Notes: generated from the sequence alone by a model not told the origin. Positions 948-33,796 are shown, counted from the first letter of the stretch. The stretch: 47,372 nucleotides of DNA from an uncultured Bacilli bacterium (GCA_947630935.1 CANRJL010000001.1:1-47372); one strand, 5' to 3'. Made by a program: numbers and translations.

Positions 948-1002
948 TTGTTTTGCTTATAAAATAATGATAAAATATATTAATTCAGTGAGGAGGAAAA
1001 TT

Positions 1003-2952
1003 ATGTTCGATTTAGTAACAAAATATAAACCTAATGGTGACCAACCAAAAGCAATTCAAGAACTTGTTTCTGGCATTAAAAGTGGGAAAAAAGAACAGGT
1101 TTTACTAGGGGCAACTGGTACTGGTAAGACTTTTACAATTGCAAATATCATTAAAGAAGTTAATCGCCCTACTCTAGTTTTAGCTCATAATAAAACACTT
1201 GCAGGACAACTTTATGCAGAGTTTAAAGAATTGTTTCCTAATAATCATGTGGAATATTTTGTATCATATTACGATTATTTTCAACCAGAAGCGTATGTGC
1301 CATCAACTGATACTTATATTGAAAAAGACTCTTCTATAAATGATGAAATTGATGAATTAAGACATGCGGCAACATCTTCTTTGATTAATTATCGGGATAC
1401 AATTGTTGTAGCCTCAGTTTCTTGTATATATGGAATTGGGGAAAAGGAAGAATATATTAATGGAACTTTAACTCTAAGTGTTGGGCAAATTGTTAAAAGA
1501 AATGCTATTATAAATAAATTAGTTGAGATGACTTATGAACGAAATGATATTGATTTTCACCGAGGAACTTTTAGAAGTCGCGGTGATACAATTGATATTG
1601 TGCCAGTTAATGAGCATACTAAAGGAATTAAAATTGAACTTTTTGGCGATGAAATTGAACGAATATGTCAATTTGACCCAGTAACTGGTGTTATTTTAAA
1701 AAGTATGAAAAATGTTACAATTTTCCCGGCAAGTCATTTCGTAACTAGTGAGGAAAAATTACATGAAGCAATTAAGAGAATTGAAGAAGAATTAAAAGAA
1801 AGACTTGCAGAATTAAAAGAAGAAAATAAATTAATTGAAGAACAACGATTACGTGAAAGAACTAATTATGATATTGAAATGTTAAAAGAAACTGGCTTTT
1901 GTAGTGGAGTTGAAAATTATTCTAGACATTTAGCTCTTAGGGGACCTGGTGAAACCCCTACTTGTTTGATTGATTTTTTTCCTGATGATTTTTTATTGGT
2001 CGTTGATGAAAGTCATGTTACCCTACCCCAAGTCCGAGGTATGTATAATGGGGATAGGATGCGAAAGCAAACTTTAGTTGATTATGGTTTTAGATTACCA
2101 AGTGCCCTAGATAATCGGCCTTTAAAATTTGAAGAATTTGAAAAGAAAATAAATCAAGCAATTTATGTTTCAGCAACACCTGGTTCTTATGAACTTGCTA
2201 AAACTAATAATACTTTTGTTGAACAAATAATAAGACCTACTGGTTTGTTAGACCCTTTGATTGATGTGCGGAAAACAGAAGGTCAAGTGGATGATATAAT
2301 TGAAGAGATAAGACTTCGTAAAGCTAAAAATGAACGAGTTTTAATAACTACTTTAACTATTCGAATGAGTGAAGAATTAACAAATTATTTAAAAGAAATG
2401 AATATTAAAGTAGCTTATTTACATAATGAAATTAAAACTTTAGAACGATTGAAAATTATTCATGATTTACGAGTTGGAATATATGATGTGGTAGTAGGAA
2501 TAAATCTTTTAAGAGAAGGTATTGATATTCCCGAAGTAAGCTTAATTTGTATTTTAGATGCTGATAAACAAGGCTTTTTAAGAAGTAGTCGCAGTTTAAT
2601 TCAAACTATAGGACGGTGTGCTAGAAATAGTAATGGTAAAGTTATAATGTATGCTGATACTTATAGTGAAGCAATGCAAGAAGCTATTAATGAAACAAAG
2701 CGAAGAAGAGAGATTCAAGAAAAATATAATCAAGAACATCATATTATTCCTCAAACAATTATTAAAGATATTAAAGAAGTAGTTTCTAATGAAATTAAAG
2801 AAAGTAGTCAAAAGAAAAAAATAACTAAAAAAGAAAAAGAAAGAATGATTAGTGAAATTGAAACAGAAATGAAGATAGCAGCGAAGAATTTAGATTTTGA
2901 ACGGGCGATGGAACTAAGAGATATTCTTTTTGAAATGAAAAGTGATTCCTAA
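1003..2952 (+). CDS. uvrB: Excinuclease ABC subunit B
   Basis: Walker [17 protein letters not shown] box, helicase C-terminal motifs and a C-terminal UVR motif ([11 protein letters not shown]). The preferred start is ATG 1003, preceded by AGGAGG at 991..996; the ORF-track start at 967 has no RBS. Confidence 0.97.
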
Positions 2953-3018: not shown

Positions 3019-3648
3019 ATGAAGATTACTGATGAATTAATTCATAAAACTAGTTATTTAAAACATGGTGATTGTTTTTTGAAAAAGATTGATTATAATG
3101 CCTTATATTTCTTTTTAAATTCTGAGCTTTTAGGACACTTTCACCCAAATGATGCTTATGATATGACTATTCATAGTACTTTAAATGGTTTTGAAATTAT
3201 TAATTTAATAACTAACAAAGAATATCTTTTAACTTTAAAAAATTACTTGTTACTACTGCAAGATAAAAATGAAGAAAAAATATATGGGCAAATTACCGCT
3301 TTAGATAATAAATGGCAAAATATAGTAAGAAGTTACTTTATTAAATCTTATGTTGATTGTATTTTTACTATTGAAAATAGAGATTCGCAAGTGTCTTATT
3401 ATTTATATAAGGTAGACGCTAGTAAAATTATTTATGGTGGTAGTTATACACCCCTTTATTTAAAGATTAAAGATAATTTATATTTTGAATATAAAAATAT
3501 GGGAGCTTTAAAAAATAATGCTTCTTCTTTTAAAACAAATAAGGTTTTTATTAACCCAAATGATAATTTTTATGAAAAGTTATTTCAAAGTTTAGAAGAA
3601 CAATTAGTTAAAGATTCTTGGCAAAGAAAAAGAAAGTTAAAATTTTAA
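3019..3648 (+). CDS. Hypothetical cytoplasmic protein
   Basis: 209-aa ORF with AGAGGA upstream of the ATG. No recognisable motif. Its 3' end overlaps the convergent gene by 4 nt. Confidence 0.6.
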   Translation: MKITDELIHKTSYLKHGDCFLKKIDYNALYFFLNSELLGHFHPNDAYDMTIHSTLNGFEIINLITNKEYLLTLKNYLLLLQDKNEEKIYGQITALDNKWQNIVRSYFIKSYVDCIFTIENRDSQVSYYLYKVDASKIIYGGSYTPLYLKIKDNLYFEYKNMGALKNNASSFKTNKVFINPNDNFYEKLFQSLEEQLVKDSWQRKRKLKF

Positions 3649-4145
3649 CTTTCCTTTTCGACAATAAATTTTAATTGATAAGGAACAAAATTTTCACCTT
3701 GTTCATCATTATATAAACGAAATTCATATATTTTTTCAGCAGCAGTTAAACTGTTTGTATCTAATAAATAATAAGTATATTCATTATCGGCATAATTAGT
3801 TTTTTCGGATATGTATTGAACTTCAGCCATTGCAATTTTTAAATGGTCAGTGGCAATTGTTTGGGGTATTCCTATATAAAGTTTATAATTTTCGTGCCGA
3901 TAAGTTGTATTTTGTAAAACTAAATGATATTTAGGTAATTTTTGAGCCATTTCATCAGATATAGCATATAAGATTTTGGAATATACTTTATCTTCAACTA
4001 CTTCAATTAAACTATTTTCAGTATAATAAGCAGCTGTTTGTTTAATATCTGGAAAATCCCATAAATAATAAGTTATGCCAACAAAGAAAAGCCAAAAACA
4101 AATTTCAATTATTTTACGACGTTTTAATTCTTTTAGATAACGCAT
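3645..4145 (-). CDS. Hypothetical membrane-anchored protein, last gene of the SipW block
   Basis: 166 aa with an N-terminal TM (IIEICFWLFFVGITYYLW). AAGGGGGA RBS upstream of the ATG. Confidence 0.6.
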   Translation of the reverse strand: MRYLKELKRRKIIEICFWLFFVGITYYLWDFPDIKQTAAYYTENSLIEVVEDKVYSKILYAISDEMAQKLPKYHLVLQNTTYRHENYKLYIGIPQTIATDHLKIAMAEVQYISEKTNYADNEYTYYLLDTNSLTAAEKIYEFRLYNDEQGENFVPYQLKFIVEKES

Positions 4146-4215
4146 ATATTGTTCCCCCTTTTGCTAGTTGTATTATAACACAGAAGGACGTTTTTGTCAA
4201 ATTAATGTAAAATGG

Positions 4216-5031
4216 TTATTTTTTCTTTTTCTTTTTTGGCTCTTTTAGTTTAGGAATATCTTCTATTTTTTTATTTTTTTTATTTTTACCTACTTCAATA
4301 ATAACTGAAGTTTTCTTTAAAGGGTCTTCTTCATTTTCACTTCTTTTTATGCCATATTTAGAATTTAGTTTTTCTTCTATTTCTTTTTTCTTTTTAGCAT
4401 TTTCTTCTTTTTTCTGTTCTTCTTTTAAAACAATATCAGCAATATCTTTTTGAGCACTTTGTAATCTTATTAATTTTAAGATATCAAAAAGAATGATTAA
4501 AAAGGCTGGGATTACAACAAGAATTAACCAACCCCATCTCGTTGTTAGAATTGATTGAAGTCTTCCTAATTGGGGAATTTTAAAGATTACTTTACCAATA
4601 ATGTTTTCAAATCTTACTGTAGCACTGTCAGGGACTTCATTATTATCCCCTTTTGTTTGGAATTGATAACCATTCTCATCGTTTGTTATGGAGTAAACAC
4701 GATGGGTTATCGTAAACCCTTTGGAAATGGTAGATGTTGAAATAAATGTAATAACATCACCAACTTTAATATCTTCAGGTTTTTTAACTTTGACATTAAC
4801 TATTACATCATAAATGTTTAGATTTGGCTCCATACTTGGTGAAATAATTGTATATAAACCAAAAGATGCTTTATAATCAGGGTTTTTATTTGCATAAACT
4901 TTAGTAGCAATAAAATAGTAAAGAAGAACTATTGCCACTAGAATTAATAAGATAAAAATAGTCCAAGATATAACAGTTGTAACAAAATGGACTTTATGTT
5001 TAATTGAGCTGTATTTTTCTTGTTTCTTCAT
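4216..5031 (-). CDS. sipW: Signal peptidase I, ER/archaeal (SipW) type
   Basis: N-terminal TM, then SPSMEP (catalytic Ser), ITHRV (His) and KGDNN boxes typical of SipW-type S26 peptidases. A second TM (WGWLILVVIPAFLIILF) and a Lys/Glu-rich tail follow. Confidence 0.8.
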   Translation of the reverse strand: MKKQEKYSSIKHKVHFVTTVISWTIFILLILVAIVLLYYFIATKVYANKNPDYKASFGLYTIISPSMEPNLNIYDVIVNVKVKKPEDIKVGDVITFISTSTISKGFTITHRVYSITNDENGYQFQTKGDNNEVPDSATVRFENIIGKVIFKIPQLGRLQSILTTRWGWLILVVIPAFLIILFDILKLIRLQSAQKDIADIVLKEEQKKEENAKKKKEIEEKLNSKYGIKRSENEEDPLKKTSVIIEVGKNKKNKKIEDIPKLKEPKKKKKK

Positions 5032-5134
5032 GTTTATACCCTTTCTATTCTATACTATATTATTATAATAAAATCATTGAAAAAATTCAATAAATAGAAT
5101 TCATAAAATAATGCATTCACTAGTTTTTGACAAT

Positions 5135-7282
5135 TTATTTTAAAGTTGGATAACCTGTTTCTTGGTCAATAACCCAATCACTTAAGGCTAAATTAAAGTA
5201 ATTGCTATTATATTTATGGTTTATTAAGTCATTATTAATATTTGGCAAGTTGATATCTTGGCGGCCTTTTGTTAATTTGTATATTAAACCATTGGTGTTT
5301 GTGGGGTCTGTTATTTTCATATAAGTTTCACTTAAGGCTTGGGCACTTGTATTATTACTTCCCGATGCACCACCACTTTTATAGTAGGTATCTTTAACAT
5401 CACCATTATATAAGTAGCCAATTTGATATCTAGTACTTCCGCCTAGAACATCTCCCGAGTTATAGGTATTATAAATCTGCTTATGAACATCGTTATTCCA
5501 AGTAACGGTATTAGCAATGCCGCCAACATAATTATGCGAAGTATTATCTTTGATAGTACCTGCATTATAACTATTTAAGATATGGCCACCACCTTGCACT
5601 AAACCAATTAAACCAGCTACTGAACCATTGTAAGCGACAGTTCCGGTATAGGTTACGCTTCCTTTATTATAACTATTTACTATAAAGGTTGTTCCATAAT
5701 TAGCAGCAACTAAACCACCTAAAGATATGATGCCTGTATCAGTTCCTTTACCATTAGTTGATATTTCACCAGCATTATACGAATTATTTATATAGCAATT
5801 ACCATTACTTAAAGCAAGAATACCAGCATTAGTAATAATTGAGTTTTGAACAGTACCTTCATTATAACTATCACTAACGAATAAATGCGAATCATTACCA
5901 ATCGCACCAACTATGCCACCACCATGATTGCCGCCTTGTAATGTACCATGATTAGAACAATTTTCTAGTCGAACATTATCACCTTTTAAATTAATGTTGT
6001 CGTTACCAACACTGCCAATAATACCACCAACAGAATAACCACTGCCATAACTAGTTACATTAACATAATTGTGAACATTTGCTAATTCAACATTAGAGGC
6101 ATAGCTAACTAGTCCCCCAATATTGGCAGTTTCATCAGTATAGGTATTACCTGTAATAGTTAAATTTTTAATACTTCCTCCAACTACAAAACCAAATAAG
6201 CTGGCAACTGTTCGTTCTGGTTTGCCATTATTGCTATGAATATGGATATAGAGATTTTCTAAAGTATGGTTATTGCCATTAAGACTCCCCAGAAAATAAT
6301 GTTCAAAATTGCCAATTGGAGGAAAACCGGTACCATTTTGATTAGTTAATTCTGTGATTAGAGGTTCAACATCATTCACGTTGTTAAGATTACCAAAGTC
6401 TAAACGCTCGCTGTTACGGTAACTTTGGGAATCGGTAAAATCTAAATTACTATCTAAAATAAAGGTTTCATTTTGGAAATTTGCCCCACTATTTACTGAA
6501 TTACTTAAGGTTACTAAATCTTCAACTCTTTGAATGTATTTTGATTTTATTTCTAAATCAGCTGTTATATTATCAACTATTAAAGTATCATTTTCATAAC
6601 GATAATTTACTTCTTGACCAGCAATAAATGGTTTAGCGCCAATTGGATATGGTTTTTGGAGCTCCATTGCAAATGAATCATTATCAATTACTTCTTGTGG
6701 GTAAATACTAGTATCACTATCAAAGGCTGTATAAGTTACTTTATGCATTACCCGAAAATCAAAATTTAAGTCAACAAAATAATCTAGCTTATCCTTATTA
6801 TAGCCATTTTCTTTATATTTAATAATGAAATAAATTTCTTTTTGCATGCCTAAATTACATTTTAATTGGTCATCACATAATTTATCTTTTAGGGTATAAT
6901 TTACAATTTCATATTCTAAATTGTCGGCTAAGCCAGTAATATCATAGATTCCCATCGGAAGATTACCAAAGTTAGTAATTTCGATTTTATATTTTATTTG
7001 GGAATTCTCATTTGGTAAATAAACTGATGTCTTAACTTTTTTAACATTATATTCTTCCCAATTAGATATTGCTTCGTTTTGGTTAAAACTACTATCAGTT
7101 GCTACTGAAATATCAGTGACTCTAATGTCAGCTTGTGCTCTTACAGTTAAAGTAACATCATCCACTAAAAGATTTTGACTAAAAGTTGCCCACCCAAGAG
7201 AAAGAAAGAAAACCATTATAGCTAAAATAAAGAAAATAAGAGAAAAAAGAGGTTTTTCATTACCTATTTTACTTTTTTTCAT
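5135..7282 (-). CDS. Secreted/surface protein: SipW-type signal, TasA-like N-terminal region and GLUG-type repeat (beta-helix-like) C-terminal region
   Basis: 715 aa. N-terminus ends ...FFLSLGWATFSQNLLVDD. KYKIEITNFGN motif. Residues ~380-600 carry recurring N-x-G...GG[IL][IV]G/A units (IGGLVSYA, VGGIIGSV, GGGIVGAI, LGGLVAAN, VAGLIGLV, VGGIANTV). The start overlaps the upstream gene by 14 nt. Confidence 0.7.
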   Translation of the reverse strand: MKKSKIGNEKPLFSLIFFILAIMVFFLSLGWATFSQNLLVDDVTLTVRAQADIRVTDISVATDSSFNQNEAISNWEEYNVKKVKTSVYLPNENSQIKYKIEITNFGNLPMGIYDITGLADNLEYEIVNYTLKDKLCDDQLKCNLGMQKEIYFIIKYKENGYNKDKLDYFVDLNFDFRVMHKVTYTAFDSDTSIYPQEVIDNDSFAMELQKPYPIGAKPFIAGQEVNYRYENDTLIVDNITADLEIKSKYIQRVEDLVTLSNSVNSGANFQNETFILDSNLDFTDSQSYRNSERLDFGNLNNVNDVEPLITELTNQNGTGFPPIGNFEHYFLGSLNGNNHTLENLYIHIHSNNGKPERTVASLFGFVVGGSIKNLTITGNTYTDETANIGGLVSYASNVELANVHNYVNVTSYGSGYSVGGIIGSVGNDNINLKGDNVRLENCSNHGTLQGGNHGGGIVGAIGNDSHLFVSDSYNEGTVQNSIITNAGILALSNGNCYINNSYNAGEISTNGKGTDTGIISLGGLVAANYGTTFIVNSYNKGSVTYTGTVAYNGSVAGLIGLVQGGGHILNSYNAGTIKDNTSHNYVGGIANTVTWNNDVHKQIYNTYNSGDVLGGSTRYQIGYLYNGDVKDTYYKSGGASGSNNTSAQALSETYMKITDPTNTNGLIYKLTKGRQDINLPNINNDLINHKYNSNYFNLALSDWVIDQETGYPTLK

Positions 7283-8411
7283 TAATATTTGGCCTTTCTA
7301 TATCACTTGCTTTTAATTGCAACAAATAAATATCATCATTGTTTTTTAAATAAAAATAGCATTTTTGATGTTTGGTAACATTGTAATACATAATAGGTAT
7401 TTTTAAATTATCCCGAACATCTAGTAATTCCGTAAATTCAGTTATTTTAAAGATATGATATTTATTAAAGTCTATTTTAGTCTTTGTTTCAACAATTAAT
7501 CTATCATAAGTTTTTAATATATTATTTAAATATTTATCATAAGCTGTTTTAGGTTTGAAGAAAATAGTTGTTAATTTAAGAAGATTAACTAAAGCCAGAA
7601 TAGCTATAATAAACGTTATAATTTCAAAAGAAAAAGTTAGAGGGTTAAATTGCCATTCTTCGGGAAGCGATAATTCATTACTTTTATTTAATGTTTCATC
7701 ATCAAATTTAATTTGCACAGCACTTTCGGATAAAGGTATAGTTACTCCACTGGTACTTGTATCTTGAAAATTCAAATGATATTTTTGACCATTTTTATTA
7801 ACTTTTAAATATACTTTTAAGTAGCTTTCTTCATTCACACCATAATTGGTTTTAAAATTATTAACTAAACTATTATAGTAATCATAATCAATAGCAATAC
7901 TTTCAGTTATAGTAAAATCTTTTTGATTTTGCATCGATAACAAAGAAGATGTAAAAAGAGGATATTCTTTTTCAAAATAACTAGCTTTTGTTTGGGGATT
8001 GGCGATGATTAATTTACCAATTATTTGATAATCAAAATCAAGAGATAAAGGTTTAGTTATATTAAATTGATAATTAAAATCAAATTTTATTTCATCTATT
8101 AAGTTGGCAACATACATCATATTTTTTTCTAAATATTCTTTTTCGTAGAAATCATTGGGTTTTAAATATACTTTGTAATCAACAGTTTGATTATCAGTAT
8201 ATTTAAGTGGTTCTGTATTTTTTATTGTAAAAGAGTTGATGGCTAAATAAAAGCAAGTTAAAAGAAAGACAATAAAGATTATGAATAAAAATGCTACTCT
8301 AATTGGATAACTAATATAAATAGGTTTTTTATTTTCTTTTTTTAAGGGTGTTGTTTTGTTTATAGTTTGTTTGGTATTCTTACGCCCTGTTGCATTGTGT
8401 TTTTTAACCAT
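7269..8411 (-). CDS. Two-TM membrane protein, possibly DUF5305 family (SipW-associated)
   Basis: Preferred start is ATG 8411 with GGTGG 5 nt upstream (ORF-track start 8444). TM near the N-terminus (VAFLFIIFIVFLLTCFYLAI) and a second TM near residue ~290 (FEIITFIIAILALVNLL). The family assignment is from memory only. Confidence 0.6.
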   Translation of the reverse strand: MVKKHNATGRKNTKQTINKTTPLKKENKKPIYISYPIRVAFLFIIFIVFLLTCFYLAINSFTIKNTEPLKYTDNQTVDYKVYLKPNDFYEKEYLEKNMMYVANLIDEIKFDFNYQFNITKPLSLDFDYQIIGKLIIANPQTKASYFEKEYPLFTSSLLSMQNQKDFTITESIAIDYDYYNSLVNNFKTNYGVNEESYLKVYLKVNKNGQKYHLNFQDTSTSGVTIPLSESAVQIKFDDETLNKSNELSLPEEWQFNPLTFSFEIITFIIAILALVNLLKLTTIFFKPKTAYDKYLNNILKTYDRLIVETKTKIDFNKYHIFKITEFTELLDVRDNLKIPIMYYNVTKHQKCYFYLKNNDDIYLLQLKASDIERPNINEKK

Positions 8412-8433
8412 ATTAACCACCTTTATTTTTCTT

Positions 8434-9558
8434 TTATTTTTCATTTAGCCAAACTGTTGGTAACCCAATATAGGGAATTTTAATATTAACTACACCAATA
8501 AACATATCTTTAGTAACAGGATAGCCATCTAAATCATCATTGGCATCTCCTTTAGTATATAAATAATATTCATTAGCATATTTTAATTTTTCAACTAAAC
8601 GGTGAACTACAATAATATTATTATATTTGAAAGCTATTACTTGACCAATAGCAACTTCATCTAAATTTTGTTTTTTTTCAACAATTACCACATCACCTTT
8701 GTGGATATTAGGACTCATACTAGCACTAGCAATAGCTAGAGCATAGTATTTAAAATAACCAGATGTAATATATACTAAAAATATGGTAATAATTATGGGA
8801 ATTATTAAAGTTCCTATTTTCTTTTTATGATATTCACGTAAGATTTCTTCATCTTTTTCTTTTTGATAAAAAAGATATATTTTACGAAGTAAGAAAAATG
8901 GAACAAACAGCCAAACTATTGAATATATGTATTGATTTGGGTTAGGAATAAATGGCAGTAAATACATAAATAATTCAATTATTAGCCGAATATATATTAC
9001 AGGTTTATAACCTGTTTTATAACTTATATAACTATATGCAATATTAGCACTTATAGTTGGTAAAACAGTTATAGCAATATAGATGAATTTATCATAAATT
9101 GGATAATTCATATTTCTTAAAAGAGATGTTGATAAATCTAAAAATATAAATAAAATGGTTGTGATTATTCTTAATAATTTTTTATCAGCAGTTTTTAAAA
9201 GCATTTGATAACGAATTATTTCTTTTAAGAAAACAATTATAATAAGGGGAATAATAATATTTGTCATACTTTTTAAAGTATAATAATTTTCAACTTTGGC
9301 AAAACCAAAAAAAATCCCCGAAAGATAATATATTAGAAAAAAGATGATTATAAATATTGATTCTTCCATTATTATATCTTTGGTATACCGGTGATTATCT
9401 TTTTCAAGGCCTAAAAACAGATGAAAACTAGCAAGCATGAGCAGAAGAAATATAATCATTTTCGTACTATCTAATATACTTGAAACAAAACTATTTAATA
9501 TTAAGATAATGAAGATGATTATTTCATATATTAATAAATTCCTATAACCTTTTTTCAT
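8434..9558 (-). CDS. Fusion protein: ~8-TM N-terminal domain + SipW-type signal peptidase I domain
   Basis: 374 aa with AGGAGG RBS. About 8 hydrophobic helices in residues 1-230, then a basic loop (QKEKDEEILREYHKKK), a TM, then SASMSPN (Ser), VHRLV (His) and KGDANDD boxes. Confidence 0.75.
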   Translation of the reverse strand: MKKGYRNLLIYEIIIFIILILNSFVSSILDSTKMIIFLLLMLASFHLFLGLEKDNHRYTKDIIMEESIFIIIFFLIYYLSGIFFGFAKVENYYTLKSMTNIIIPLIIIVFLKEIIRYQMLLKTADKKLLRIITTILFIFLDLSTSLLRNMNYPIYDKFIYIAITVLPTISANIAYSYISYKTGYKPVIYIRLIIELFMYLLPFIPNPNQYIYSIVWLFVPFFLLRKIYLFYQKEKDEEILREYHKKKIGTLIIPIIITIFLVYITSGYFKYYALAIASASMSPNIHKGDVVIVEKKQNLDEVAIGQVIAFKYNNIIVVHRLVEKLKYANEYYLYTKGDANDDLDGYPVTKDMFIGVVNIKIPYIGLPTVWLNEK

Positions 9559-9583
9559 TCTTCCTCCTAAATAGTTTTGTGAA

Positions 9584-9613
9584 AATATATTAAAGAATAC
9601 GCTTTAATATATT
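9584..9613 (-). other. Perfect 12-bp AT-rich stem-loop between the 217-aa subunit gene and the downstream peptidase-fusion gene
   Basis: AATATATTAAAG (9584-9595) / CTTTAATATATT (9602-9613) with a 6-nt loop. No T-run follows on the minus strand, so it is not a canonical terminator. Confidence 0.3.
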
Positions 9614-9620
9614 ATGGTTT

Positions 9621-10274
9621 TTAATTGGCATCTGATGAACTATATGTTAATGTTATGTCGCCAAAGGTAACATCGAAATCACCGTCGATTGGTGATGAAT
9701 CGGAATATTCTAAAATTACTTTAACTTCTTTGCTTGTTTTAGTTGAAATTGATTTAGTAGTAATATTTTCTTTATTTTGAGTATATTCATCTTGGTCCAC
9801 TATTACTTTTATTGAAACATCAGAACAAGCTGTGTTAGCTAATTCGGCATCGGCTGGACTATCACCAGCTGTTGGAGTACATTGAGGTTTTTCTTGCGCA
9901 AATGATACTTTTTTTAAGTAAGCATCAAGTTCGCCATTATTATATACATAAAAACTATAGGTTGCAGTTTGTTTGCCTTTGCCTTTAGTGAAAGTAGCAT
10001 TTAAGTTACTAATTGTTGTTGACATTAAATTAGCATCTGTAGCTGAAAATCCATCTTCTTCTGGTGGAACAAGTGTTGGTTTGACAGAGCCAGTACTGGC
10101 TTCTTCAGATTCGGTCGAAAATTTGACATCAAATTTACTTCTGTCTCCTTTAACATTGGCACTGGAAGAAATTGTTAAGTTTTGAGAATATGAAGCGAAA
10201 CCTAGTGATACACCAAGAACTGCAATAATTAAAGCAATAATAGCAATTATTTTGGAACTACGGTCTTTTTCCAT
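9621..10274 (-). CDS. Secreted TasA/camelysin-like protein with SipW-type signal
   Basis: 217 aa with AGGAGGTG RBS. N-terminus KIIAIIALIIAVLGVSLGFASYSQNLTISS. YSFYVYNNG motif. The C-terminal beta-strand-like end is DFDVTFGDITLTYSS. Confidence 0.6.
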   Translation of the reverse strand: MEKDRSSKIIAIIALIIAVLGVSLGFASYSQNLTISSSANVKGDRSKFDVKFSTESEEASTGSVKPTLVPPEEDGFSATDANLMSTTISNLNATFTKGKGKQTATYSFYVYNNGELDAYLKKVSFAQEKPQCTPTAGDSPADAELANTACSDVSIKVIVDQDEYTQNKENITTKSISTKTSKEVKVILEYSDSSPIDGDFDVTFGDITLTYSSSDAN

Positions 10275-10485
10275 TTTTTCACCTCCTATTCTTTACATTC
10301 TCATTATAAATAGTTTTTTTACTATTCATAAATGGCGGTGAATATCTTGTAAAGTATCATTAGTTGTGATATATCTTTTGCTATCTTACAATTTATTCTT
10401 ATATAAATTATATATATTTATTAATAATTTAGCAAGATATTTTTAATGCTTTATGTTCAAAATGTTAACCAAAATGGCAATTAAA

Positions 10486-10520
10486 AAACCTATAAAATAT
10501 TTTTTTTATTTTATAGGTTT
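10486..10520 (-). terminator. Putative terminator after the giant repeat gene
   Basis: 13-bp stem AAACCTATAAAAT / ATTTTATAGGTTT with a 9-nt loop and flanking A/T runs, 15 nt below the TAG stop at 10535-10537. Confidence 0.5.
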
Positions 10521-10534
10521 ATTACATTAGCCAA

Positions 10535-13500
10535 CTAATCTTTTAGTGATTTATCTTCACCAATAGCAATTGCTGCACTGTATTTTTTACCTTGTTGTTT
10601 GTTTTGGTCTTGTAAAGTATCTTTGAAAGTGTATATAACATCATAACTATAAACGGTATGAGCTGGTATCATAATCTCTGGGAATAAGACGCCATCTTCG
10701 ATTGGCGATGGACTTTCGCCTTTATCCAGAGCTCTATCTTTTTTGATAACGTATACTAAATCGGACGGTGGGTCAAATTCATTAGTTACACTTTCAAAAT
10801 TGATACTATAGAATATCGCTCGGTCAGTTGAATTGTTTATAGTGAAGGTTTGAGTTCCTGTCCAATTCGGCATGATTCCGGTTTCATTAATGCCTTTAAC
10901 GTAATTTATTAAAAAGACGCCATCATCACCACAATTAAAGTCACAGTTACCATCATGGTCATTATCAACAAATTTATCTGGTTTACCATCACCATTGGTA
11001 TCACAGTTTAAATCACAATGGTCATCGTTATCGATATCACAGTTTAAATCGCAGTGGGAATCACCATCTAAGAAGCAATTCCAATCACATTTACCATCTT
11101 TATCTTTATCGACATTTTTATCTGGTTTACTATCACCATCGGTATCACAGTTTAAGTCACACTGGTCATCCCAATCGGTATCACAATCAATATCACATAA
11201 ACCATCTTTATCTTTGTCTAAGTTTTTATCTGGGATATCATCATCATCAGTGTCACAGTTGGTATCGCAACGACCATCGCCATTATTATCACAGTTTAGG
11301 TCACATTTACCATCTTTGTCAGTATCACAATTGGTATCACATTTACCATCATTGTTATTATCACAGTTTAGGTCGCATTTGCCGTCACCATCTTTATCGA
11401 CATTGGTATCAGGTTTATCATCATTATCAGTATCACAGTTAGTGTTACATTTATCGCTACCCTCATTATAGCAATTTAAGTCACACTTACCATCGCCATC
11501 TTTATCAACGTTTTTATCTGGCTTATCATCGCCGTTGGTATCACAGTTAGTGTTACATTTATCGCTACCCTCATTGTAACAATTTAAGTCACACTTACCA
11601 TCACCATTTTTATCGACATTTTTATCTGGCTTGTCATCATCGTTGGTATCACAGTTTAAATCACATTTGCCATCATTGTTGGTGTCACAATTTAAATCGC
11701 ATTTGCCGTCACCGTTTTTATCGACATTGGTATCAGGTTTGTCATCATTATTGGTATCGCAGTTTAATTCGCACTTACCATCATTGTTGGTATCACAATT
11801 TAAGTCACATTTACCATCGTTGTTATTATCACAATTTAGGTCACATTTATCGTCGTTATTGGTATCACAATTTAAGTCACACTTGCCGTCGCCGTTTTTA
11901 TCAACATTGGTATCAGGTATTTTATTGTTGTCAGTATCACAGTTAAGGTCACATTTGCCATCATTGTTGGTGTCACAGTTTAAGTCACACTTACCATCAT
12001 CATTTTTATCAACATTAGTATCTGGTTCTCCATCGCCATTATTATCACAATTTTTATCGCAAGTGCCATCATTATTGATATCGCAATTTAAGTCACACTT
12101 ACCATCTTTATTGGTGTCACAGTTTAAATCACACTTACCATCGCCATTCGTATCGCAATTTAAGTCACATTTACCGTCATTGTTGGTATCGCAATTAGTA
12201 TCGCATTTACCATCGTTATCGGTATCACAGTTTAAATCACAAATACCATCACCGTTTTTATCAACATTAGTATCTGGTTCTCCATCAGCATTGGAGTCAC
12301 AGTTGGTATCACATTTGCCGTCACCATCAATATCACAGTTGTAGTTACATGTTTTATCATCACAATTATAATCGCATTTACCATCGCCATTACTATCACA
12401 ATATTTGTTACATAAACCATCACCAGTGGTATCACAATTTAAATCACAGAAGCCATCTTTATTATTATCTAAATTTTTATCAGGAATATTATCATTATTG
12501 GTGTCACAATTTAATTCGCATTTGCCATCATTGTTGGTATCACAGTTTAAATCACAAACACCATCATTATCTTTGTCAACATTTAAATCAGGAATACCAT
12601 CGTTATTCGTGTCACAATTTTTATCACATTTATCATCATTATTGATATCACAGTTTAAATCGCAAGTACCATCATTATTGGTATCACAATTATAATCACA
12701 TTTACCATCATTATTGGTATCGCAGTTTACATCGCATTTGCCGTCGCCAGTAATGTCAACATTAGTATCTGGTAGGCCATCACCATTGGTGTCACAGTTT
12801 AGGTCACACTTACCATCGTTGTTGGTATCGCAATTTAAGTCACATTTACCGTCACCATTGGTATCGCAATTTAAGTCACACTTATCATCATTATCTTTGT
12901 CAATGTTTAAATCAGGAGTGCCATCATTATTCGTGTCACAATTTAGGTCACATTTACCATCACCGTCTTTATCAATGTTTAAATCAGGTTCATCATCACC
13001 ATTGGTGTCACAATTTAATTCACATTTGCCATCACCATTGGTATCGCAGTTTAAATCGCAAATGCCATCATCATTTTTATCGACGTTTTTATCTGGCTTA
13101 TCATCATTGTTGGTATCACAGTTAGTATCGCAGGTACCATCACCGTTGATGTCACAGTTTAAGTCACAAGTACCATCGCCATCAGTATCAACATTAGTAT
13201 CTGGTTTATCATCATTATTGGTATCGATATTTTTATCAGGAATATCATCATTATTAGTATCACAATTTAATTCACATTTGCCGTCATTGTTGGTATCACA
13301 GTTTAAATCACACTTACCATCGCCGTTTTTATCAACGTTTTTATCTGGCTTGTCATCATTGTTGGTATCACAATTTAATTCACATTTGCCATCACCATTG
13401 GTATCACAATTTAGGTCACACTTACCATCACCATCTTTATCGATGTTACTATCAGGAATATTATCACCATTGGTATCGCAGTTTAAATCGCAATAATAAT

Positions 13501-14374
13501 CACCATTGGTATCACAGTTTAGGTCACACTTACCATCGCCATCAAGGTCAACATTTAAATCAGGTTTTTGGTCATTGTTTTTATCGATATTTTGGTCAGC
13601 TAAACCATCGTTATTAGTATCACAGTTTATATCACATTTGCCGTCACCATCAGTATCAATATTTAGGTCTGGTTTGCCATCACCATCGACATCGATGTTG
13701 ATATCTGGAAAACCATCGTTATTAGTATCACAGTTTAAGTCACATTTACCATCACCGTTTTTATCTTGATTCATTAAATTTTCATTTGGTTTGCCATCAC
13801 CAGTAGTATCAATATTAATATCTGGTTTACCATCTCTGTCAATATCAATATTAATATCTGGTTTGCCATCACCATCGACATCAATGTTTAAGTCTGCTTG
13901 GCCATCACCATCAATATCAATATTAATATCTGGGCGATTATCTTTATCAATATCACAGTTTAAATCACACTTACCATCATTATCAGTATCTTGATTAATC
14001 ATATTTTTGTCAGCGATGCCATCGCCATTAGAATCAACATTAAATACTGCAGAATGAATTTGACCATAACTTATATTAACATCTGGCAATTTATCATCAT
14101 TAGTGTCAATATCATAGTCAGCTTTACCATCATTATTATAATCACAGTTTAAATCACAGATGCCGTCACCATTTAAATCTTGATTTAAGGTATTACGACT
14201 GGAATGAAAAATCTTAATATAGCTATAAGTAGAACCTACTATTCCTAAAAACATAATTAAAAATAACAGAATAATAATTATTATAGTTCTTCTTCTTTCT
14301 TTTTCTTTTTCATTATCTAGTAAATCAGCATATTTTTTTTCTAAACCGTAGTCATTTAAACTATTTTTATCCAT
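10535..14374 (-). CDS. Giant secreted Asp/Asn/Cys-rich repeat protein (thrombospondin type-3-like Ca-binding repeats) with SipW-type signal and TasA-like C-terminal domain
   Basis: 1279-aa uninterrupted ORF with AGGAG RBS. N-terminus RRRTIIIIILLFLIMFLGIVGSTYSYIKIF. Residues ~66-1152 are 12-aa units such as CDLNCDTNNDGK and PDTNVDKNGDGK. The last 127 aa are non-repetitive (IMPNWTGTQTFTINNS ... QGKKYSAAIAIG). Confidence 0.85.
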   Translation of the reverse strand: MDKNSLNDYGLEKKYADLLDNEKEKERRRTIIIIILLFLIMFLGIVGSTYSYIKIFHSSRNTLNQDLNGDGICDLNCDYNNDGKADYDIDTNDDKLPDVNISYGQIHSAVFNVDSNGDGIADKNMINQDTDNDGKCDLNCDIDKDNRPDINIDIDGDGQADLNIDVDGDGKPDINIDIDRDGKPDINIDTTGDGKPNENLMNQDKNGDGKCDLNCDTNNDGFPDINIDVDGDGKPDLNIDTDGDGKCDINCDTNNDGLADQNIDKNNDQKPDLNVDLDGDGKCDLNCDTNGDYYCDLNCDTNGDNIPDSNIDKDGDGKCDLNCDTNGDGKCELNCDTNNDDKPDKNVDKNGDGKCDLNCDTNNDGKCELNCDTNNDDIPDKNIDTNNDDKPDTNVDTDGDGTCDLNCDINGDGTCDTNCDTNNDDKPDKNVDKNDDGICDLNCDTNGDGKCELNCDTNGDDEPDLNIDKDGDGKCDLNCDTNNDGTPDLNIDKDNDDKCDLNCDTNGDGKCDLNCDTNNDGKCDLNCDTNGDGLPDTNVDITGDGKCDVNCDTNNDGKCDYNCDTNNDGTCDLNCDINNDDKCDKNCDTNNDGIPDLNVDKDNDGVCDLNCDTNNDGKCELNCDTNNDNIPDKNLDNNKDGFCDLNCDTTGDGLCNKYCDSNGDGKCDYNCDDKTCNYNCDIDGDGKCDTNCDSNADGEPDTNVDKNGDGICDLNCDTDNDGKCDTNCDTNNDGKCDLNCDTNGDGKCDLNCDTNKDGKCDLNCDINNDGTCDKNCDNNGDGEPDTNVDKNDDGKCDLNCDTNNDGKCDLNCDTDNNKIPDTNVDKNGDGKCDLNCDTNNDDKCDLNCDNNNDGKCDLNCDTNNDGKCELNCDTNNDDKPDTNVDKNGDGKCDLNCDTNNDGKCDLNCDTNDDDKPDKNVDKNGDGKCDLNCYNEGSDKCNTNCDTNGDDKPDKNVDKDGDGKCDLNCYNEGSDKCNTNCDTDNDDKPDTNVDKDGDGKCDLNCDNNNDGKCDTNCDTDKDGKCDLNCDNNGDGRCDTNCDTDDDDIPDKNLDKDKDGLCDIDCDTDWDDQCDLNCDTDGDSKPDKNVDKDKDGKCDWNCFLDGDSHCDLNCDIDNDDHCDLNCDTNGDGKPDKFVDNDHDGNCDFNCGDDGVFLINYVKGINETGIMPNWTGTQTFTINNSTDRAIFYSINFESVTNEFDPPSDLVYVIKKDRALDKGESPSPIEDGVLFPEIMIPAHTVYSYDVIYTFKDTLQDQNKQQGKKYSAAIAIGEDKSLKD
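10919..14179 (-). repeat. In-frame tandem coding repeat, 36-nt period (108-nt higher order), ~90 units
   Basis: The periodicity is visible in both the DNA and the translation. The opposite strand is stop-free over long stretches as a side effect. Confidence 0.9.
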
Positions 14375-14405
14375 ATTTACTCTCTCCTAGCATACTATTG
14401 CAATT

Positions 14406-14434
14406 ATTATAACATAAATAAATTTTGAACACAA
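14406..14434 (-). promoter_or_regulatory. Candidate sigma-A promoter of the giant repeat gene (extended -10)
   Basis: On the minus strand: TTGTGT (14434-14429), 17-nt spacer, TGTTATAAT (14414-14406). It lies ~30 nt upstream of the RBS. Confidence 0.4.
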
Positions 14435-14481
14435 TATTGAAAAGATATTCTAAGTTAAAATTTTTAGAAATGTTTTATAAG

Positions 14482-14503
14482 AAAAAAAAAGACCAACGGT
14501 CTT
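14482..14503 (-). terminator. Intrinsic terminator of the 221-aa TasA-like gene
   Basis: On the minus strand: AAGACC-GTT-GGTCTT followed by T9, starting 2 nt after the stop codon. Confidence 0.6.
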
Positions 14504-14504
14504 C

Positions 14505-15170
14505 TTATGCAGCATCGTTTACTTCAAAACCAATATCTAAACTAAATGTTTTGCCTTGTTCAGCATTTTGGTCTTGACCAGCGTCATTAACATATTCTAG
14601 ATATAAATAATACATACTATCAGTAGAAGTATCAACAGTAATATCTTCAGTAATAGGAGTATCAGATGCAATTATTTGAGCATTATGACCAGCAACTTCT
14701 TTACCTTCTAATGAAGTTAAAGTACAAGTCATTTTATCATAATGTTTATGGTCATCAGTTTCAGGGTCTGATGGTTGAGATGAAGTACATAATTCTTCTG
14801 CTGTAATATCAGAATAATCAGGACTATCAACTTTGTAAAGAGTATATTTCATATGACTTGGAAATAATGTTGAACCTGTTGGAGTCAATTTAATAGTTGC
14901 TTTAGTTGACTCAGCTCCAGCTTCTCCTCCTCCTTTAACTTTTAAAGTTTTTATTCCTTTCCAGCCTGGTAAAGCATCTGTTACTTCGATTTTATCTCCT
15001 AATGTCATAGTAGCTGATGCTAATGCTTTAGTTTTAATTTGAGTAGTATTATTAGCTGGGTTATCAATTTTTACATTTGCAGTGAAATATGCGAATGTTG
15101 CCCCAACAACTGCTACTAATAAAGTGGCAACAGCTATTACTGTTAATAAAACCATATTTTTCCTTTCCAT
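14505..15170 (-). CDS. Secreted TasA/CalY/camelysin-like matrix-fibre protein with canonical SipW-type signal
   Basis: 221 aa with GAGAGGAG RBS. N-terminus VLLTVIAVATLLVAVVGATFAYFTANV is close to the G-T-F/Y-A-F/Y-F-S/T signature of SipW-cognate signals. LPGWKGIKTLKVKGG motif. C-terminal DQNAEQGKTFSLDIGFEV resembles the camelysin-family C-terminus. The gene has its own promoter-like and terminator elements. Confidence 0.7.
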   Translation of the reverse strand: MERKNMVLLTVIAVATLLVAVVGATFAYFTANVKIDNPANNTTQIKTKALASATMTLGDKIEVTDALPGWKGIKTLKVKGGGEAGAESTKATIKLTPTGSTLFPSHMKYTLYKVDSPDYSDITAEELCTSSQPSDPETDDHKHYDKMTCTLTSLEGKEVAGHNAQIIASDTPITEDITVDTSTDSMYYLYLEYVNDAGQDQNAEQGKTFSLDIGFEVNDAA

Positions 15171-15197: not shown

Positions 15198-15226
15198 AAT
15201 ATATCAAATAATTTTTTATTTTTCAA
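15198..15226 (-). promoter_or_regulatory. Candidate sigma-A promoter of the 221-aa TasA-like gene
   Basis: On the minus strand: TTGAAA (15226-15221), 17 nt, TATATT (15203-15198). Chance matches are common in DNA this AT-rich. Confidence 0.3.
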
Positions 15227-15410: not shown

Positions 15411-17768
15411 TTAATTAATTGTTGGGTCAAATTTATGAAATATTTTTTGACAAAAATCGTACAATTTTTTAAAGACATATAAGGAATCTAAAATTAAGAC
15501 AAAACTTATTAGAATTGTTTCAGGACTAAATTTAGTTAAGTTAAAAAATTCGTTTTGAAATGTGATACAATAGATGAAGCCAATTAACATAATGCTAAAC
15601 AAAATTCTTCTTAGCCAACTAAAGGGAATACTTATTTTGTAAAGGAATATTAAACCTGTAATACCTGTTAGATATACAGCTAAGGTGTTGATAAGGGTAT
15701 AATCAAGATGAAAAATATTAGCAAAAGCGGTTATTAAGATTATGTTAAAAAATACCGTTAAAGCAGTAGGCAGGCTTTTACTAATTATTCGTAAAAGAAA
15801 TTTCCCTCTTACTAAATCATTGTTGGGCTCTAAAGCTAAAATAAATGAGGGAATACCAATAGTAAAACTGGTAATTAGGGTTAATTGAATAGGTACAAAA
15901 AAGTATTTAGAACCAACGATGATGCTAAAGATGATTAAAAGCATGGTATAAATAGTTTTAACTAAAAGTAAAGAACTAGACCGTTCAATGTTATTAATGG
16001 TACGTCTTCCTTCGGCTACTATTTTAGGTAAAGAATCAAAATTATCATTTAATAAGACTAATTGCGCAACATTACGAGCTGAATCAGTGGCACTAGCAAG
16101 AGAAATGGCACAGTCACTTTTTTTCAATGCTAAGACATCATTTACACCATCGCCAGTCATAGCTACACATTTACCATTATTTTGTAATGTTTCAATAATT
16201 ACTTTTTTTTGATTAGGCGTTACTCTACCAAAAATAGCATATTCGGATACCGCATTTTTTAATTCTTCTTCACTTAGATTAGCCGTATCAAGGGCTTTGG
16301 CGGTAGTTAAGCCAACTTTGTTAGCAATTTTTAAAACTGTTTGGTAACTATCACCGGAAATTATTTTGACATCTACTCCTTGTTTTTTAAAGTAAGCTAA
16401 GGTATCTTTAGCTTCTTGTCTTATTACATCTTCCAAAGTTATGAAAGCTAAAGGTTCCAAATTTTTAGGGTTTTTAGAGATATCTGTTTTACTTTTAGCA
16501 ACTAATAAAACCCGATATTCTTTTTGATAAGAATTTAATTTAGGATATTGGTTTTGGCGTTTTTCTTCTAATAAATATTCTGGGGCTCCTAAATAAATTG
16601 TCTCGTCTTTAAAAGCAATAGCCGAAAATTTGCGTTCACTAGAAAATGGTAACTTATCTAAGACTTCAAGTTTTTTTTCTTCTTTAAAGTATTCTTTTAA
16701 AGCACGCATGGTGGCATTATTATCTGAAGATGCTGAGGCAAAAGCATTTATAATTTCAGTAACTTCTTCTTGAGAAGAATTAAGAGGTATTATTTCTTTT
16801 ACTAACATATTGCCTTTAGTTAAGGTGCCAGTTTTATCTAAGCAAATAGTATCAACTCTTGCTAGAGTTTCTATGCAATATAATTGCTGAACTAAAACTT
16901 TATATTTTGCTAATCTAATAACACTTACAGCCATGACAGAACTGGTTAGTAAAACTAAACCTTCAGGAATCATTCCTATTAAGGAAGCAACTGTTGTAAA
17001 AATAGCTTCGGAAACATTGCCATTGGTACTGTTATATTGACTGAAAAACATAACAATTCCAATTGGAATAATTAAATAAGAAATTAGTTTTAAGATATCT
17101 TCAAAAGATTTCATTATAATGGAATTGATTGGTTTTTGATATTTAGCTTCTTTAGATATTTTAGAGGTATAATTGTCAGCTCCAATATGTTCTATTTTGG
17201 CTAGACAACTACCACTGACAATAAAAGAACCTGATAAAAGCATATCTTTTTTTCTTTTAATAATTGTATCAGATTCACCAGTGATAAATGATTCATTTAC
17301 TTCTACTTCATCTTCCATAATAATGGCATCAGCAGTGATTTGGTCGCCAGCACTTACTTTAATAATATCATCTAAGACTAATTCTTCTAAATTACATTTT
17401 TTTTCGGTACCATCTCTAATAACAGTTATTGCAGATTCACTAATAATAGAAAGTCTATCTATTATTTTTTTGGAAATTATTTCTTCAATAATACTAATAA
17501 TTGAATTGATAATAATAACACCCATGAAAAGACAATTTTTTAAACCATTTAAAAAATTATTATTTAATAAACCAGCAATGAAAACGGCGATGCCTAAAGC
17601 AATATTTAAAAAATTAAAGTAAGTAAAAAAATTATCTTTAATTATTTGGGCAATTGTTTTGGTTTTAGGTTGGTCATTATAATTTGTTAAACCATCTTTT
17701 ATTCGTTGTTCTACTTCTTCGGTTGTTAGACCTTTGGTAAGAGGTGGTGAATATCGTTGAACTTTCAT
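15411..17768 (-). CDS. Cation-translocating P-type ATPase (P2-like, substrate unknown)
   Basis: 785 aa with TGES (ITGESD), PEGL (MIPEGLVLL), DKTGTLT and MTGDGVNDVLALKK motifs and multiple C-terminal TMs. Confidence 0.9.
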   Translation of the reverse strand: MKVQRYSPPLTKGLTTEEVEQRIKDGLTNYNDQPKTKTIAQIIKDNFFTYFNFLNIALGIAVFIAGLLNNNFLNGLKNCLFMGVIIINSIISIIEEIISKKIIDRLSIISESAITVIRDGTEKKCNLEELVLDDIIKVSAGDQITADAIIMEDEVEVNESFITGESDTIIKRKKDMLLSGSFIVSGSCLAKIEHIGADNYTSKISKEAKYQKPINSIIMKSFEDILKLISYLIIPIGIVMFFSQYNSTNGNVSEAIFTTVASLIGMIPEGLVLLTSSVMAVSVIRLAKYKVLVQQLYCIETLARVDTICLDKTGTLTKGNMLVKEIIPLNSSQEEVTEIINAFASASSDNNATMRALKEYFKEEKKLEVLDKLPFSSERKFSAIAFKDETIYLGAPEYLLEEKRQNQYPKLNSYQKEYRVLLVAKSKTDISKNPKNLEPLAFITLEDVIRQEAKDTLAYFKKQGVDVKIISGDSYQTVLKIANKVGLTTAKALDTANLSEEELKNAVSEYAIFGRVTPNQKKVIIETLQNNGKCVAMTGDGVNDVLALKKSDCAISLASATDSARNVAQLVLLNDNFDSLPKIVAEGRRTINNIERSSSLLLVKTIYTMLLIIFSIIVGSKYFFVPIQLTLITSFTIGIPSFILALEPNNDLVRGKFLLRIISKSLPTALTVFFNIILITAFANIFHLDYTLINTLAVYLTGITGLIFLYKISIPFSWLRRILFSIMLIGFIYCITFQNEFFNLTKFSPETILISFVLILDSLYVFKKLYDFCQKIFHKFDPTIN

Positions 17769-17858
17769 AATATCTTTCCTTTCGCTTTTTATTATAACAT
17801 GTATTTTAATATCTCGTAAATAATAGCAAAAGAAAGTTAGTATAAAAAAAGAAAGAAA

Positions 17859-29031: not shown

Positions 29032-29049
29032 CAGGCTACTCCTTTCTTT

Positions 29050-29313: not shown

Positions 29314-29331
29314 TTATTCCTCCTAATATTA

Positions 29332-29598: not shown

Positions 29599-29675
29599 AA
29601 TATTCCTCCTAACTCTATATATAATTTTATTATATCTTTTTTTGCTTTTTTTATCAATAAATTTTTATTTGTTTA

Positions 29676-31360: not shown

Positions 31361-31375
31361 TTTTATTCCTTCTTT

Positions 31376-32479: not shown

Positions 32480-32511
32480 TATGGCTCATCCCTTTCTATT
32501 CTTTTTATTCT

Positions 32512-33366: not shown

Positions 33367-33384
33367 TTTTATTCCTCCTTAATT

Positions 33385-33786: not shown

Positions 33787-33796
33787 CTATGCCTCC

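Follow-up and report, generated by a model that had tools for sequence, protein, structure and literature searches.

Does the cluster of eight genes at positions 3645–15170 of contig CANRJL010000001.1 encode one surface fibre system or two? The contig, from an uncultured Bacilli bacterium (GCA_947630935.1), is a complete contig of a metagenome-assembled genome (MAG) at NCBI. It is 47,372 bp long with ~28% G+C, and its whole length is referred to here as the window. An earlier note on this DNA described the cluster as one much larger, multi-subunit version of the systems that depend on SipW, the peptidase that cleaves the fibre protein TasA. The reading we favour, with moderate confidence, is that the region consists of two independent secretion-and-assembly modules, B nested in A, each with its own peptidase and its own class of substrate. 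It builds on directly observed homologies, folds, synteny, and a correlation between junctions and peptidases. Module A is made of p221, p1279, SipW271, and g166, and module B of p217, p374, a DUF5305 protein, and p715. Open reading frame (ORF) calling over the whole window places the eight minus-strand ORFs where the earlier note had put them:

14505..15170 (-): p221, module A, TasA-like, putative major subunit
10535..14374 (-): p1279, module A, giant
9621..10274 (-): p217, module B, putative major subunit
8434..9558 (-): p374, module B, putative dedicated peptidase fused to transmembrane (TM) helices
7269..8444 (-): DUF5305 protein, 391 aa, module B, probable true start 8411
5135..7282 (-): p715, module B, putative minor or tip subunit
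4216..5031 (-): SipW271, module A, SipW-like peptidase, 271 aa
3645..4145 (-): g166, last gene of module A, small single-pass membrane protein

One argument for two modules is that they recur separately among ~90 related loci. A scan of 185,579 species-representative genomes with the p374-family alignment as query yielded 161 tblastn-confirmed stretches, some genomes giving two, and 79 loci were kept. All 79 belong to MAGs of uncultured gut bacteria, which bear the labels Bacilli, Tenericutes/Mycoplasma, Erysipelotrichaceae or Ca. (Candidatus) Faecisoma. The p374-type peptidase has p217-like genes beside it in 73 of the 79 loci, one to six each and almost always directly upstream, and a DUF5305 gene adjacent to it in 77, almost always directly downstream. 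A gene resembling the conserved N-terminal part of p715 (p715N) is present in 52; its product varies in length from 147 to 1328 aa and is variable at the C-terminus. Co-occurrence of the other module was counted within 8 kb, and a module A gene, p221-like, is found at this distance in just one locus (L039). The single large system of the earlier note is thus not borne out: the two cassettes co-occur in 1 of 79 loci, and each has its own peptidase and junction.

Module A likewise occurs alone. In L001, the closest p221 homologue (53% identity) is followed by genes for a Cys/Asp-repeat protein (735 aa), a SipW (283 aa), and a g166-like protein (178 aa), an uninterrupted order with no p217, p374, DUF5305 or p715 genes in between. 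The order of p221-like gene(s), giant, and SipW is also found in L091, L092, and L093, again without any module B gene. Orthologues of p1279 are present in all four loci, each with a SipW271 orthologue after it, and a g166 orthologue holds the same position after SipW in L001 and L093. In three of these four standalone loci (L001, L091, and L093) module A adjoins uvrB. As this neighbour is common to them and the window, the module A of the window appears to occupy its ancestral site. The uvrB gene of the window (967–2952, plus strand) flanks the cluster on the strand opposite to module A.

Because the modules recur separately and terminator- and promoter-like signals lie at their borders, the arrangement is most simply explained by an insertion of module B into module A, between p1279 and SipW271. 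The signals are as follows:

15198..15226 (-): promoter-like TTGAAA-17-TG-TATATT upstream of p221, from a consensus scan only
14486..14506 (-): terminator-like hairpin and T-run directly 3' of the p221 stop codon
10482..10524 (-): AT-rich hairpin and T-run after the p1279 stop codon, 18-nt arms and 7-nt loop (inverted repeat I21)
10407..10435 (-): promoter-like TTGCTA-17-TATAAT upstream of p217, a consensus match only
5062..5090 (-): promoter-like TTGAAT-17-TATAAT upstream of SipW271
4172..4200 (-): promoter-like TTGACA-17-TG-TATAAT directly upstream of g166, a perfect extended -10 site of the sigma-70 type

The hairpin at 10482–10524 is likely a terminator that parts p221 and p1279 of module A from module B, and the site in front of g166 suggests strong independent expression of this gene. 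Direct or inverted repeats flanking module B, as a mark of mobile insertion, were searched for and none were found. The earlier note had seen a ribosome-binding site before every gene. A Shine-Dalgarno sequence is indeed present at seven of the eight starts; the exception is the DUF5305 gene at the start of its longest ORF. Since the ATG at 8411 of this gene does have one (AAGGTGG 5' of the start), the 8434–8444 overlap that had been reported, which follows from the choice of the longest ORF, is probably an artefact. With the start at 8411, the gene begins 22 nt beyond the p374 stop codon, a spacing also found in the relative L006. The other overlap reported, at 7269–7282, is real and kept in relatives.

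Several related loci vary in their make-up. A second, divergent module B stands in tandem with the main copy in L034 (1856–4689), L038 (1884–4708), and L079 (11006–13797), and consists of a subunit, a 380–386-aa TM-peptidase, and a 342–352-aa DUF5305 protein. L021 carries six p217-like genes in tandem. In L092 (1–16705), the module A copy abuts conjugation genes (TraC-like and TraG/VirD4-type); it comprises p221-like genes, a giant of 898 aa, and a long-tailed SipW of 406 aa.

The second line of evidence comes from the junctions at which the signal segments end. The four related junctions quoted in the earlier note are present: GATFAYF in p221, GSTYSYI in p1279, GFASY in p217, and GWATF in p715. 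Among the 46 ORFs of >=100 aa in the six frames of the window, only these four show G-x(0-2)-[FYW]-[AS]-x-[FYI] directly after a hydrophobic stretch. The two modules differ in the type of junction. Beside p374-type peptidases, a junction of the type G-[FYW]-[AS]-x-[FY] is carried by 85 of 96 p217-like ORFs and by 51 of 54 tip-like ORFs, and none of these 150 ORFs has the module A junction T-[FY]-[AS]-Y-[FI]. In module A, (G)ATFAYF is the junction of the subunits and TYSY[IF] that of four of five giants. Because the type of junction co-varies with the type of peptidase, and considering the synteny, we infer that SipW271 serves p221, and perhaps p1279, and that p374 serves p217 and p715.

Both peptidases are of the archaeal or endoplasmic reticulum (ER) type of family S26, as had been noted. 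They exceed the cut-off of TIGR02228, the model of archaeal/ER-type signal peptidase I (SPase I), which is 51.85 bits (106.7 for SipW271 and 74.9 for p374), and the SM, HR, and GDxN boxes of both retain the Ser, His, and Asp, respectively, that are the established catalytic residues of SipW and Sec11-type enzymes. SipW271 has S66/H110/D129, a TM helix at either end, and a cytoplasmic tail rich in Lys. In p374, a TM scan predicts an N-domain of about nine TM helices (nt 8824–9558) and no C-terminal TM helix; the catalytic domain (nt 8437–8823) contains S280/H319/D338, which are invariant in 28 homologues. The Bacillus SipW equivalog model NF046067 has a cut-off of 190 bits, and SipW271 and p374 score 97.1 and 53.3, respectively. 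Judged by these scores, both enzymes are best called SipW-like and not SipW orthologues. There are 1525 homologues of p374; the 120 listed are of about its length (366–398 aa) and are 50–69% identical, and p374 is much better conserved than its presumed substrates. The N-domain has no Pfam match. A relation to CPBP proteases was considered and rejected, as the spacing of the invariant E113-x-x-R116 differs (by eye) and there is no conserved His.

The other membrane proteins differ in how well they can be classified. A hidden Markov model (HMM) search for DUF5305, recommended earlier, places the DUF5305 protein above the gathering cut-off of PF17231 (46.9 bits, cut-off 29). It has two TM helices (aa 51–69 and 271–289) and is proposed, by analogy, to be an accessory subunit of the signal peptidase. 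No Pfam or NCBIfam match was found for g166. The idea that it is a truncated DUF5305 protein was dropped; a pairwise BLAST match (E 0.002) was not reproduced by a profile of 73 DUF5305 sequences.

The substrates of module A are related to TasA. The signal peptide of p221 comprises aa 1–27 (nt 15090–15170), with a predicted cleavage between GATFA and YFTANV, and it scores 23.6 bits against TIGR04088, the model of SipW-dependent signals (cut-off 19). Against PF12389 (Peptidase_M73, TasA/camelysin), p221 itself reaches 17.7 bits, for a gathering score of 22.5; 1627 homologues were found, and nine of 36 sampled match this family at E<=0.01 (best 4.2e-6). The AlphaFold 2 (AF2) model has a mean predicted local distance difference test (pLDDT) score of 80.5. 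Its three best Foldseek matches in the PDB are the TasA fibre 8aur (E 9.4e-5), the archaeal bundling pilus 7ueg, and the cannulae 9h8b; inclusion of the signal helix in the model keeps the TM-scores modest, at about 0.4. Mature p221 is acidic (pI 4.5, ~15% D+E) and has two Cys, and its N-terminal extension (aa 25–51) is a coil of low pLDDT in the monomer model. A p221-family profile found no match among PDB sequences even at E<=10, and its hhalign comparison with AbpX, a donor-strand subunit of archaeal and clostridial loci (sequence from a preprint supplement), is not significant. By fold and profile, p221 is TasA-like.

The signal peptide of the p221 family, MEKKNTILLTVIAIATLLVAVVGATFAYFTA, is conserved at 89% mean pairwise identity over residues 1–31 versus 35% for the rest of the protein; the trend is weaker in the p217 family (59% versus 38%). 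Such conservation in the p221 family is far above that of ordinary Sec signals. It is proposed to reflect a sequence-specific recognition of the whole TM segment.

The giant p1279 starts with a charged N-region of 29 aa, followed by a TM segment and a junction between GSTYS and YIKIF (nt 14222–14374). A charged cytoplasmic N-region of 29–42 residues is present in all giants; in that of L092, a lipobox-like LLIIGCCAS replaces the TYSY junction. Then come ~1050 aa of 12-aa Cys/Asp units (nt 11000–14197), C-D-x-N-C-D-T-N-x-D-G-x, organized in 36-residue super-repeats with 114 Cys and ~82 DxNxDG-like loops; Tandem Repeats Finder (TRF) reports a 36-nt unit x60 and a 108-nt unit x20. By hhalign, the C-terminal domain (nt 10538–10999) is a homologue of the p221 family (probability 96%, E 4.5e-9, 115 columns). 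The homology covers the last ~125 residues, from a PGWK motif to the C-terminal QNxxQGKxF, and the domain has no counterpart of the first ~28 mature residues of p221, the presumed donor strand. The p1279 and p221 genes also have a 52-nt stretch in common (71% DNA identity, D6).

We take the repeat unit of p1279 to resemble the DxDxDG loops of thrombospondin type-3 and EF-hand-like repeats. DxNxDG spacing and paired Cys are alike in both, a resemblance and not a membership, and the loop pattern is consistent with calcium binding. An assignment of the repeats to the thrombospondin or EF-hand families was rejected, with no HMM or PDB support; the PDB search gave polcalcin at E about 1 only. Matches to MSCRAMM ClfA/Sdr and to Filamin were also set aside, being compositional and far below the cut-offs.

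The substrates of module B are of another class. The junction of p217 is SLGFA followed by SYSQNLTISSSANV, and the protein is an acidic Ig-like beta-sandwich with two invariant Cys (mature pI 4.43, 14.7% D+E). Its AF2 model has a pLDDT of 87.6 and an unstructured N-terminal extension. The family counts 3008 cluster representatives at E<=1e-3, unannotated and many of them with C-terminal extensions. Neither PF12389 nor TIGR04088 is matched by any of 35 p217-family members, and hhalign aligns the p221 and p217 families over the signal peptide only (30 columns, probability 62%). The first ~14 mature residues show a conserved pattern, F2, L6, I8, A12, and V14, in which Y/F2, L6, and I8 are in register with W2, L6, and L8 of AbpX; position 4 is Q or variable, not acidic. 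An hhalign comparison with AbpX (9SJ2/9RHP; sequence from the same preprint supplement) is not significant, with a probability of 2.5%, and extends over signal and donor strand only, and AbpX is not among the top 50 Foldseek matches of p217. For a distant link to AbpX or to the haloarchaeal Tafi pili, the view of the family extends to the best 150 of the 3008 relatives from the exhaustive representative search.

In p715, the junction lies between SLGWA and TFSQNLLV. A conserved N-terminal part of ~300 aa (nt 6383–7282) is followed by a variable C-terminal part with weak GLUG-like repeats (nt 5138–6382). The latter does not support the name GLUG adhesin given to it earlier: three stretches match PF07581 with 14.8 bits (E 0.04), below the cut-off of 20.5. 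The order of motifs in p715 and p217 is co-linear, t-Y-x-F-Y-V-x-N-x-G and then a Cys pair. The x-V/I-x-N-x-G motif that had been ascribed to all four substrates occurs in p217 (YVYNNG) and p715 (EITNFG) and is absent from p221 and p1279.

Taken together, two of the four substrates are TasA-like and the other two are not detectably so. The earlier proposal of a dedicated SipW with TasA-family substrates therefore holds for p221 and for the C-terminal domain of p1279, on the evidence of TIGR04088, fold, and hhalign, and it fails, by the refutation test that the earlier note itself had set, for p217 and p715, which show no similarity to TasA by profile or fold.

How could the two modules work? 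In module A, it is reasoned that p221, the abundant subunit, is exported by Sec and cut by SipW271 after GATFA. The freed N-terminal strand would then enter the next subunit by donor-strand exchange, as in TasA. The disulfide-stapled Asp-rich loops of p1279 would form a Ca2+-binding rod, and its TasA-like domain, which has no adjacent donor strand, may accept the strand of p221; as an acceptor of this kind, p1279 could be the stalk, anchor or cross-linker of the p221 fibre. In module B, p374 and its DUF5305 accessory would cleave the G-[FWY]-[AS]-x-F junction of p217 and p715. The exposed amphipathic N-terminus (x-F/Y-S-x-x-L-x-I...) might join the Ig-like subunits to one another in a filament or matrix at the surface, with p217 as major subunit and p715 as variable tip or adhesin.

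These proposals draw on the N-termini of the mature subunits. The predicted mature starts alternate hydrophobic residues, Y-F-T-A-N-V-K-I in p221 and S-Y-S-Q-N-L-T-I-S-S-S-A-N-V in p217. In the monomer models, the first ~20–25 mature residues of both are unstructured or of low confidence, as reported for the donor strands of AbpX. The p217/p715 pattern is in register with Q-W-S-E-T-L-S-L-S-A-T-I of AbpX, with Q replacing the Ca2+-ligand E4. Acidity and a pair of Cys are further traits that mature p221 and p217 have in common with AbpX. By analogy, assembly by donor-strand exchange is a reasonable expectation for module A and a weak one for module B.

Several points weigh against this two-module reading or parts of it. 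The N-region of p1279 is atypically long and charged, and the L092 orthologue is without the junction; because of this N-region and the lipobox-like motif of L092, the giant may not be a peptidase substrate and may stay membrane-tethered. Its repeats match no calcium-binding HMM in Pfam or NCBIfam. For p217, Foldseek gives no significant match (Saci_0406 thread E 0.046, Fim/Pap ~0.1, TasA 0.13), the family profile finds no PDB match at E<=10 though AbpX is in the library, and the weak Pfam matches of the family are to generic Ig-like sandwiches (ASH/PapD-type). The hhalign probability between p715N and the p217 family is 95.9% with the signal peptide and 2.5% without it. Cleavage, peptidase–substrate pairing, and polymerisation are argued from analogy and synteny. 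Finally, the nesting of B in A could reflect a functional coupling that lies beyond the reach of synteny statistics.

The alternative that survives best concerns module B only. It holds that p374 and DUF5305, as a specialised peptidase complex, mature abundant monomeric Ig-like surface proteins or adhesins (the p217 paralogues and p715 with its variable heads), which are cell-associated or form an envelope layer, and that no filament is made. The generic Ig-like fold of p217, with no significant match to donor-strand pilins, fits this view, as do the one to six paralogues per locus, the long adhesin-typical C-terminal extensions of many family members, and a peptidase far more conserved than its substrates. 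However, the first ~14 mature residues alternate (F2, L6, I8, A12, V14), the donor strand of AbpX (W2, L6, L8, A10, I12) is in register with them, and the N-terminal segment is unstructured in the monomer model. Moreover, a layout of SPase, DUF5305, small subunit, and variable tip is known so far only from donor-strand filaments. We regard a non-filamentous module B as rather unlikely.

A single integrated SipW system is less probable still and is, in our estimate, improbable. It would build one composite fibre, in which p221 makes the shaft and p1279 the rod, while p217 and p715 serve as accessory and adhesin subunits. Such a system would explain why the eight genes are contiguous and co-oriented and why B lies inside A in the window itself, and the p221 and p217 families have signal peptides that are related over the 30 columns mentioned above. 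Yet almost every related genome has A and B apart. Between p1279 and p217 stand a terminator-like hairpin and a promoter-like site, with further promoter-like sites before SipW271 and g166; the two classes of subunit have unrelated mature domains, and the junction types never cross modules. That p374 is simply the housekeeping signal peptidase of the lineage, with an incidental p217 neighbourhood, is very unlikely, for although the enzyme is highly conserved (as the 120 listed homologues show) and widespread in the clade (161 confirmed stretches, two in some genomes), its synteny with p217-like (73/79) and DUF5305 (77/79) genes is near-universal, in some genomes two or three copies each come with subunit and DUF5305 genes of their own (L034, L038, L079, and Lapin-008 bin31), and bacterial enzymes of the archaeal/ER type are known as dedicated ones, e.g., SipW.

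The two-module reading can be extended to a more specific model, which we offer as tentative and would not expect to hold in all its parts. It comprises two orthogonal signal/peptidase pairs, told apart by the whole TM signal, so unusually conserved in the p221 family, and a junction code (GATFAYF versus G-[FWY]-[AS]-x-F); a p374–DUF5305 multi-subunit complex; strand-donating subunits in which no TasA ancestry is detectable; and a Ca2+-stiffened, disulfide-stapled, strand-accepting stalk. The p374 complex would be dedicated to the Ig-like family of ~3000 clusters in gut Mycoplasmatota-like Bacilli, and the giant, with its 80 or so loops, would present a TasA domain beyond the cell wall.

The cluster has further neighbours of note in the window. 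Just upstream of p221 (15411–20450, minus strand) are two tandem P-type ATPase-like ORFs of 785 and 863 aa. Both contain DKTGTLT and GDGVND motifs, by eye, and may be Ca2+ or cation pumps; such neighbours could matter if the repeats of p1279 bind calcium. A cluster at 28013–37645 (minus strand) contains a T2SSE/PilB-like ATPase (31376–32479), ends with a 1282-aa ORF (33797–37645) that has no Pfam match, and may be a locus for type IV pili or of a Tad-like kind. Secretion of the products of the sipW-bsa operon is influenced, in C. perfringens, by type IV pilus genes. At 22684–24261 (plus strand), a 525-aa protein combines a C-terminal sortase domain (aa 354–518) with an extended N-terminal region that lacks annotation; an obvious LPXTG motif is absent from all eight proteins of the cluster. 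Scans of the window for Rfam families and tRNAs gave no hits.

If the two-module reading and the proposed assembly are true, widespread uncultured Bacilli of the animal and human gut build two kinds of surface fibre or matrix, with parts related to TasA biofilm fibres and to archaeal Tafi/AbpX. Dedicated peptidases that lie side by side and have distinguishable junctions make peptidase specificity, and the roles of DUF5305 and of the polytopic N-domain, testable. Gene context also yields a functional prediction for the family of p217-like proteins.

Among known systems, module A is a variant of the tapA-sipW-tasA or sipW-bsaABC type. Like tapA-sipW-tasA of B. subtilis, sipW-tasA-calY of B. cereus, and sipW-bsaA-bsaB-bsaC of C. 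perfringens, it encodes a SipW-like peptidase of the archaeal/ER type together with subunits of the TasA superfamily whose signals are of the SipW-dependent type, and like C. perfringens, with BsaC, it has a large accessory secreted protein. In the known systems, fibres form by N-terminal donor-strand exchange; SipW cleaves TasA, and TapA gives the nucleating strand (PMC9674648). Module A differs in that no TapA homologue is present and in that its accessory protein is a 1279-aa Cys/Asp-repeat giant ending in a TasA-like domain. In addition, SipW271 lies below the NF046067 cut-off and p221 below the PF12389 gathering score, the p221-family signal peptide is far better conserved than the mature part (89% versus 35%), and the host is not Bacillus or Clostridium but an uncultured gut Bacilli/Mycoplasmatota-like lineage.

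For module B, the precedent of tapA-sipW-tasA put forward earlier is less apt, as archaeal Tafi and AbpX-type loci are closer. In haloarchaeal Tafi, deletion of the peptidase TafD blocks processing of the pilin TafA (PMC11821415), and TafD is accompanied by a DUF5305 protein, TafG, which is a proposed helper (PMC11821415, PMC12337348). The AbpX loci of archaea (P. abyssi AbpX) and Clostridia, reported in January 2026, combine minor subunits and tip proteins with a 'structurally distinct' ten-TM SPase I and its putative accessory, DUF5305 (bioRxiv 10.64898/2026.01.04.697558). Module B shares with the AbpX loci a dedicated multi-TM SPase I, DUF5305, and variable tip proteins, and p217 matches AbpX in part: it is small and acidic, contains two Cys, is aromatic at mature position 2, and starts with an alternating hydrophobic, donor-strand-like segment. 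In contrast, p374 has ~9 predicted TM helices and no C-terminal one, p217 has neither a sequence nor a fold match to AbpX and no acidic Ca2+ ligand at position 4, and no SLH/LPXTG anchor or c-di-GMP genes are nearby. With the Tafi loci of haloarchaea and Thermococcales, module B shares a dedicated SPase I and DUF5305 alongside small pilins (TafA/E in Tafi) and larger, variable structural proteins. Tafi is, however, archaeal and in haloarchaea Tat-dependent, its pilins are unrelated in sequence to p217, and TafD has 4 TM helices and an N-terminal catalytic domain, unlike p374. Because p217 is not demonstrably a homologue of AbpX or of Tafi pilins, module B is filed as one that 'works like' these systems and not as a 'member of' them. 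Both modules are variants of known fibre systems and do not amount to a new kind; what is new here is the nested pair of putatively orthogonal peptidase–substrate sets, the giant Asp/Cys-repeat stalk architecture proposed for a TasA-domain protein, and, in an uncultured lineage of the gut, a large family of subunits that had no annotation.

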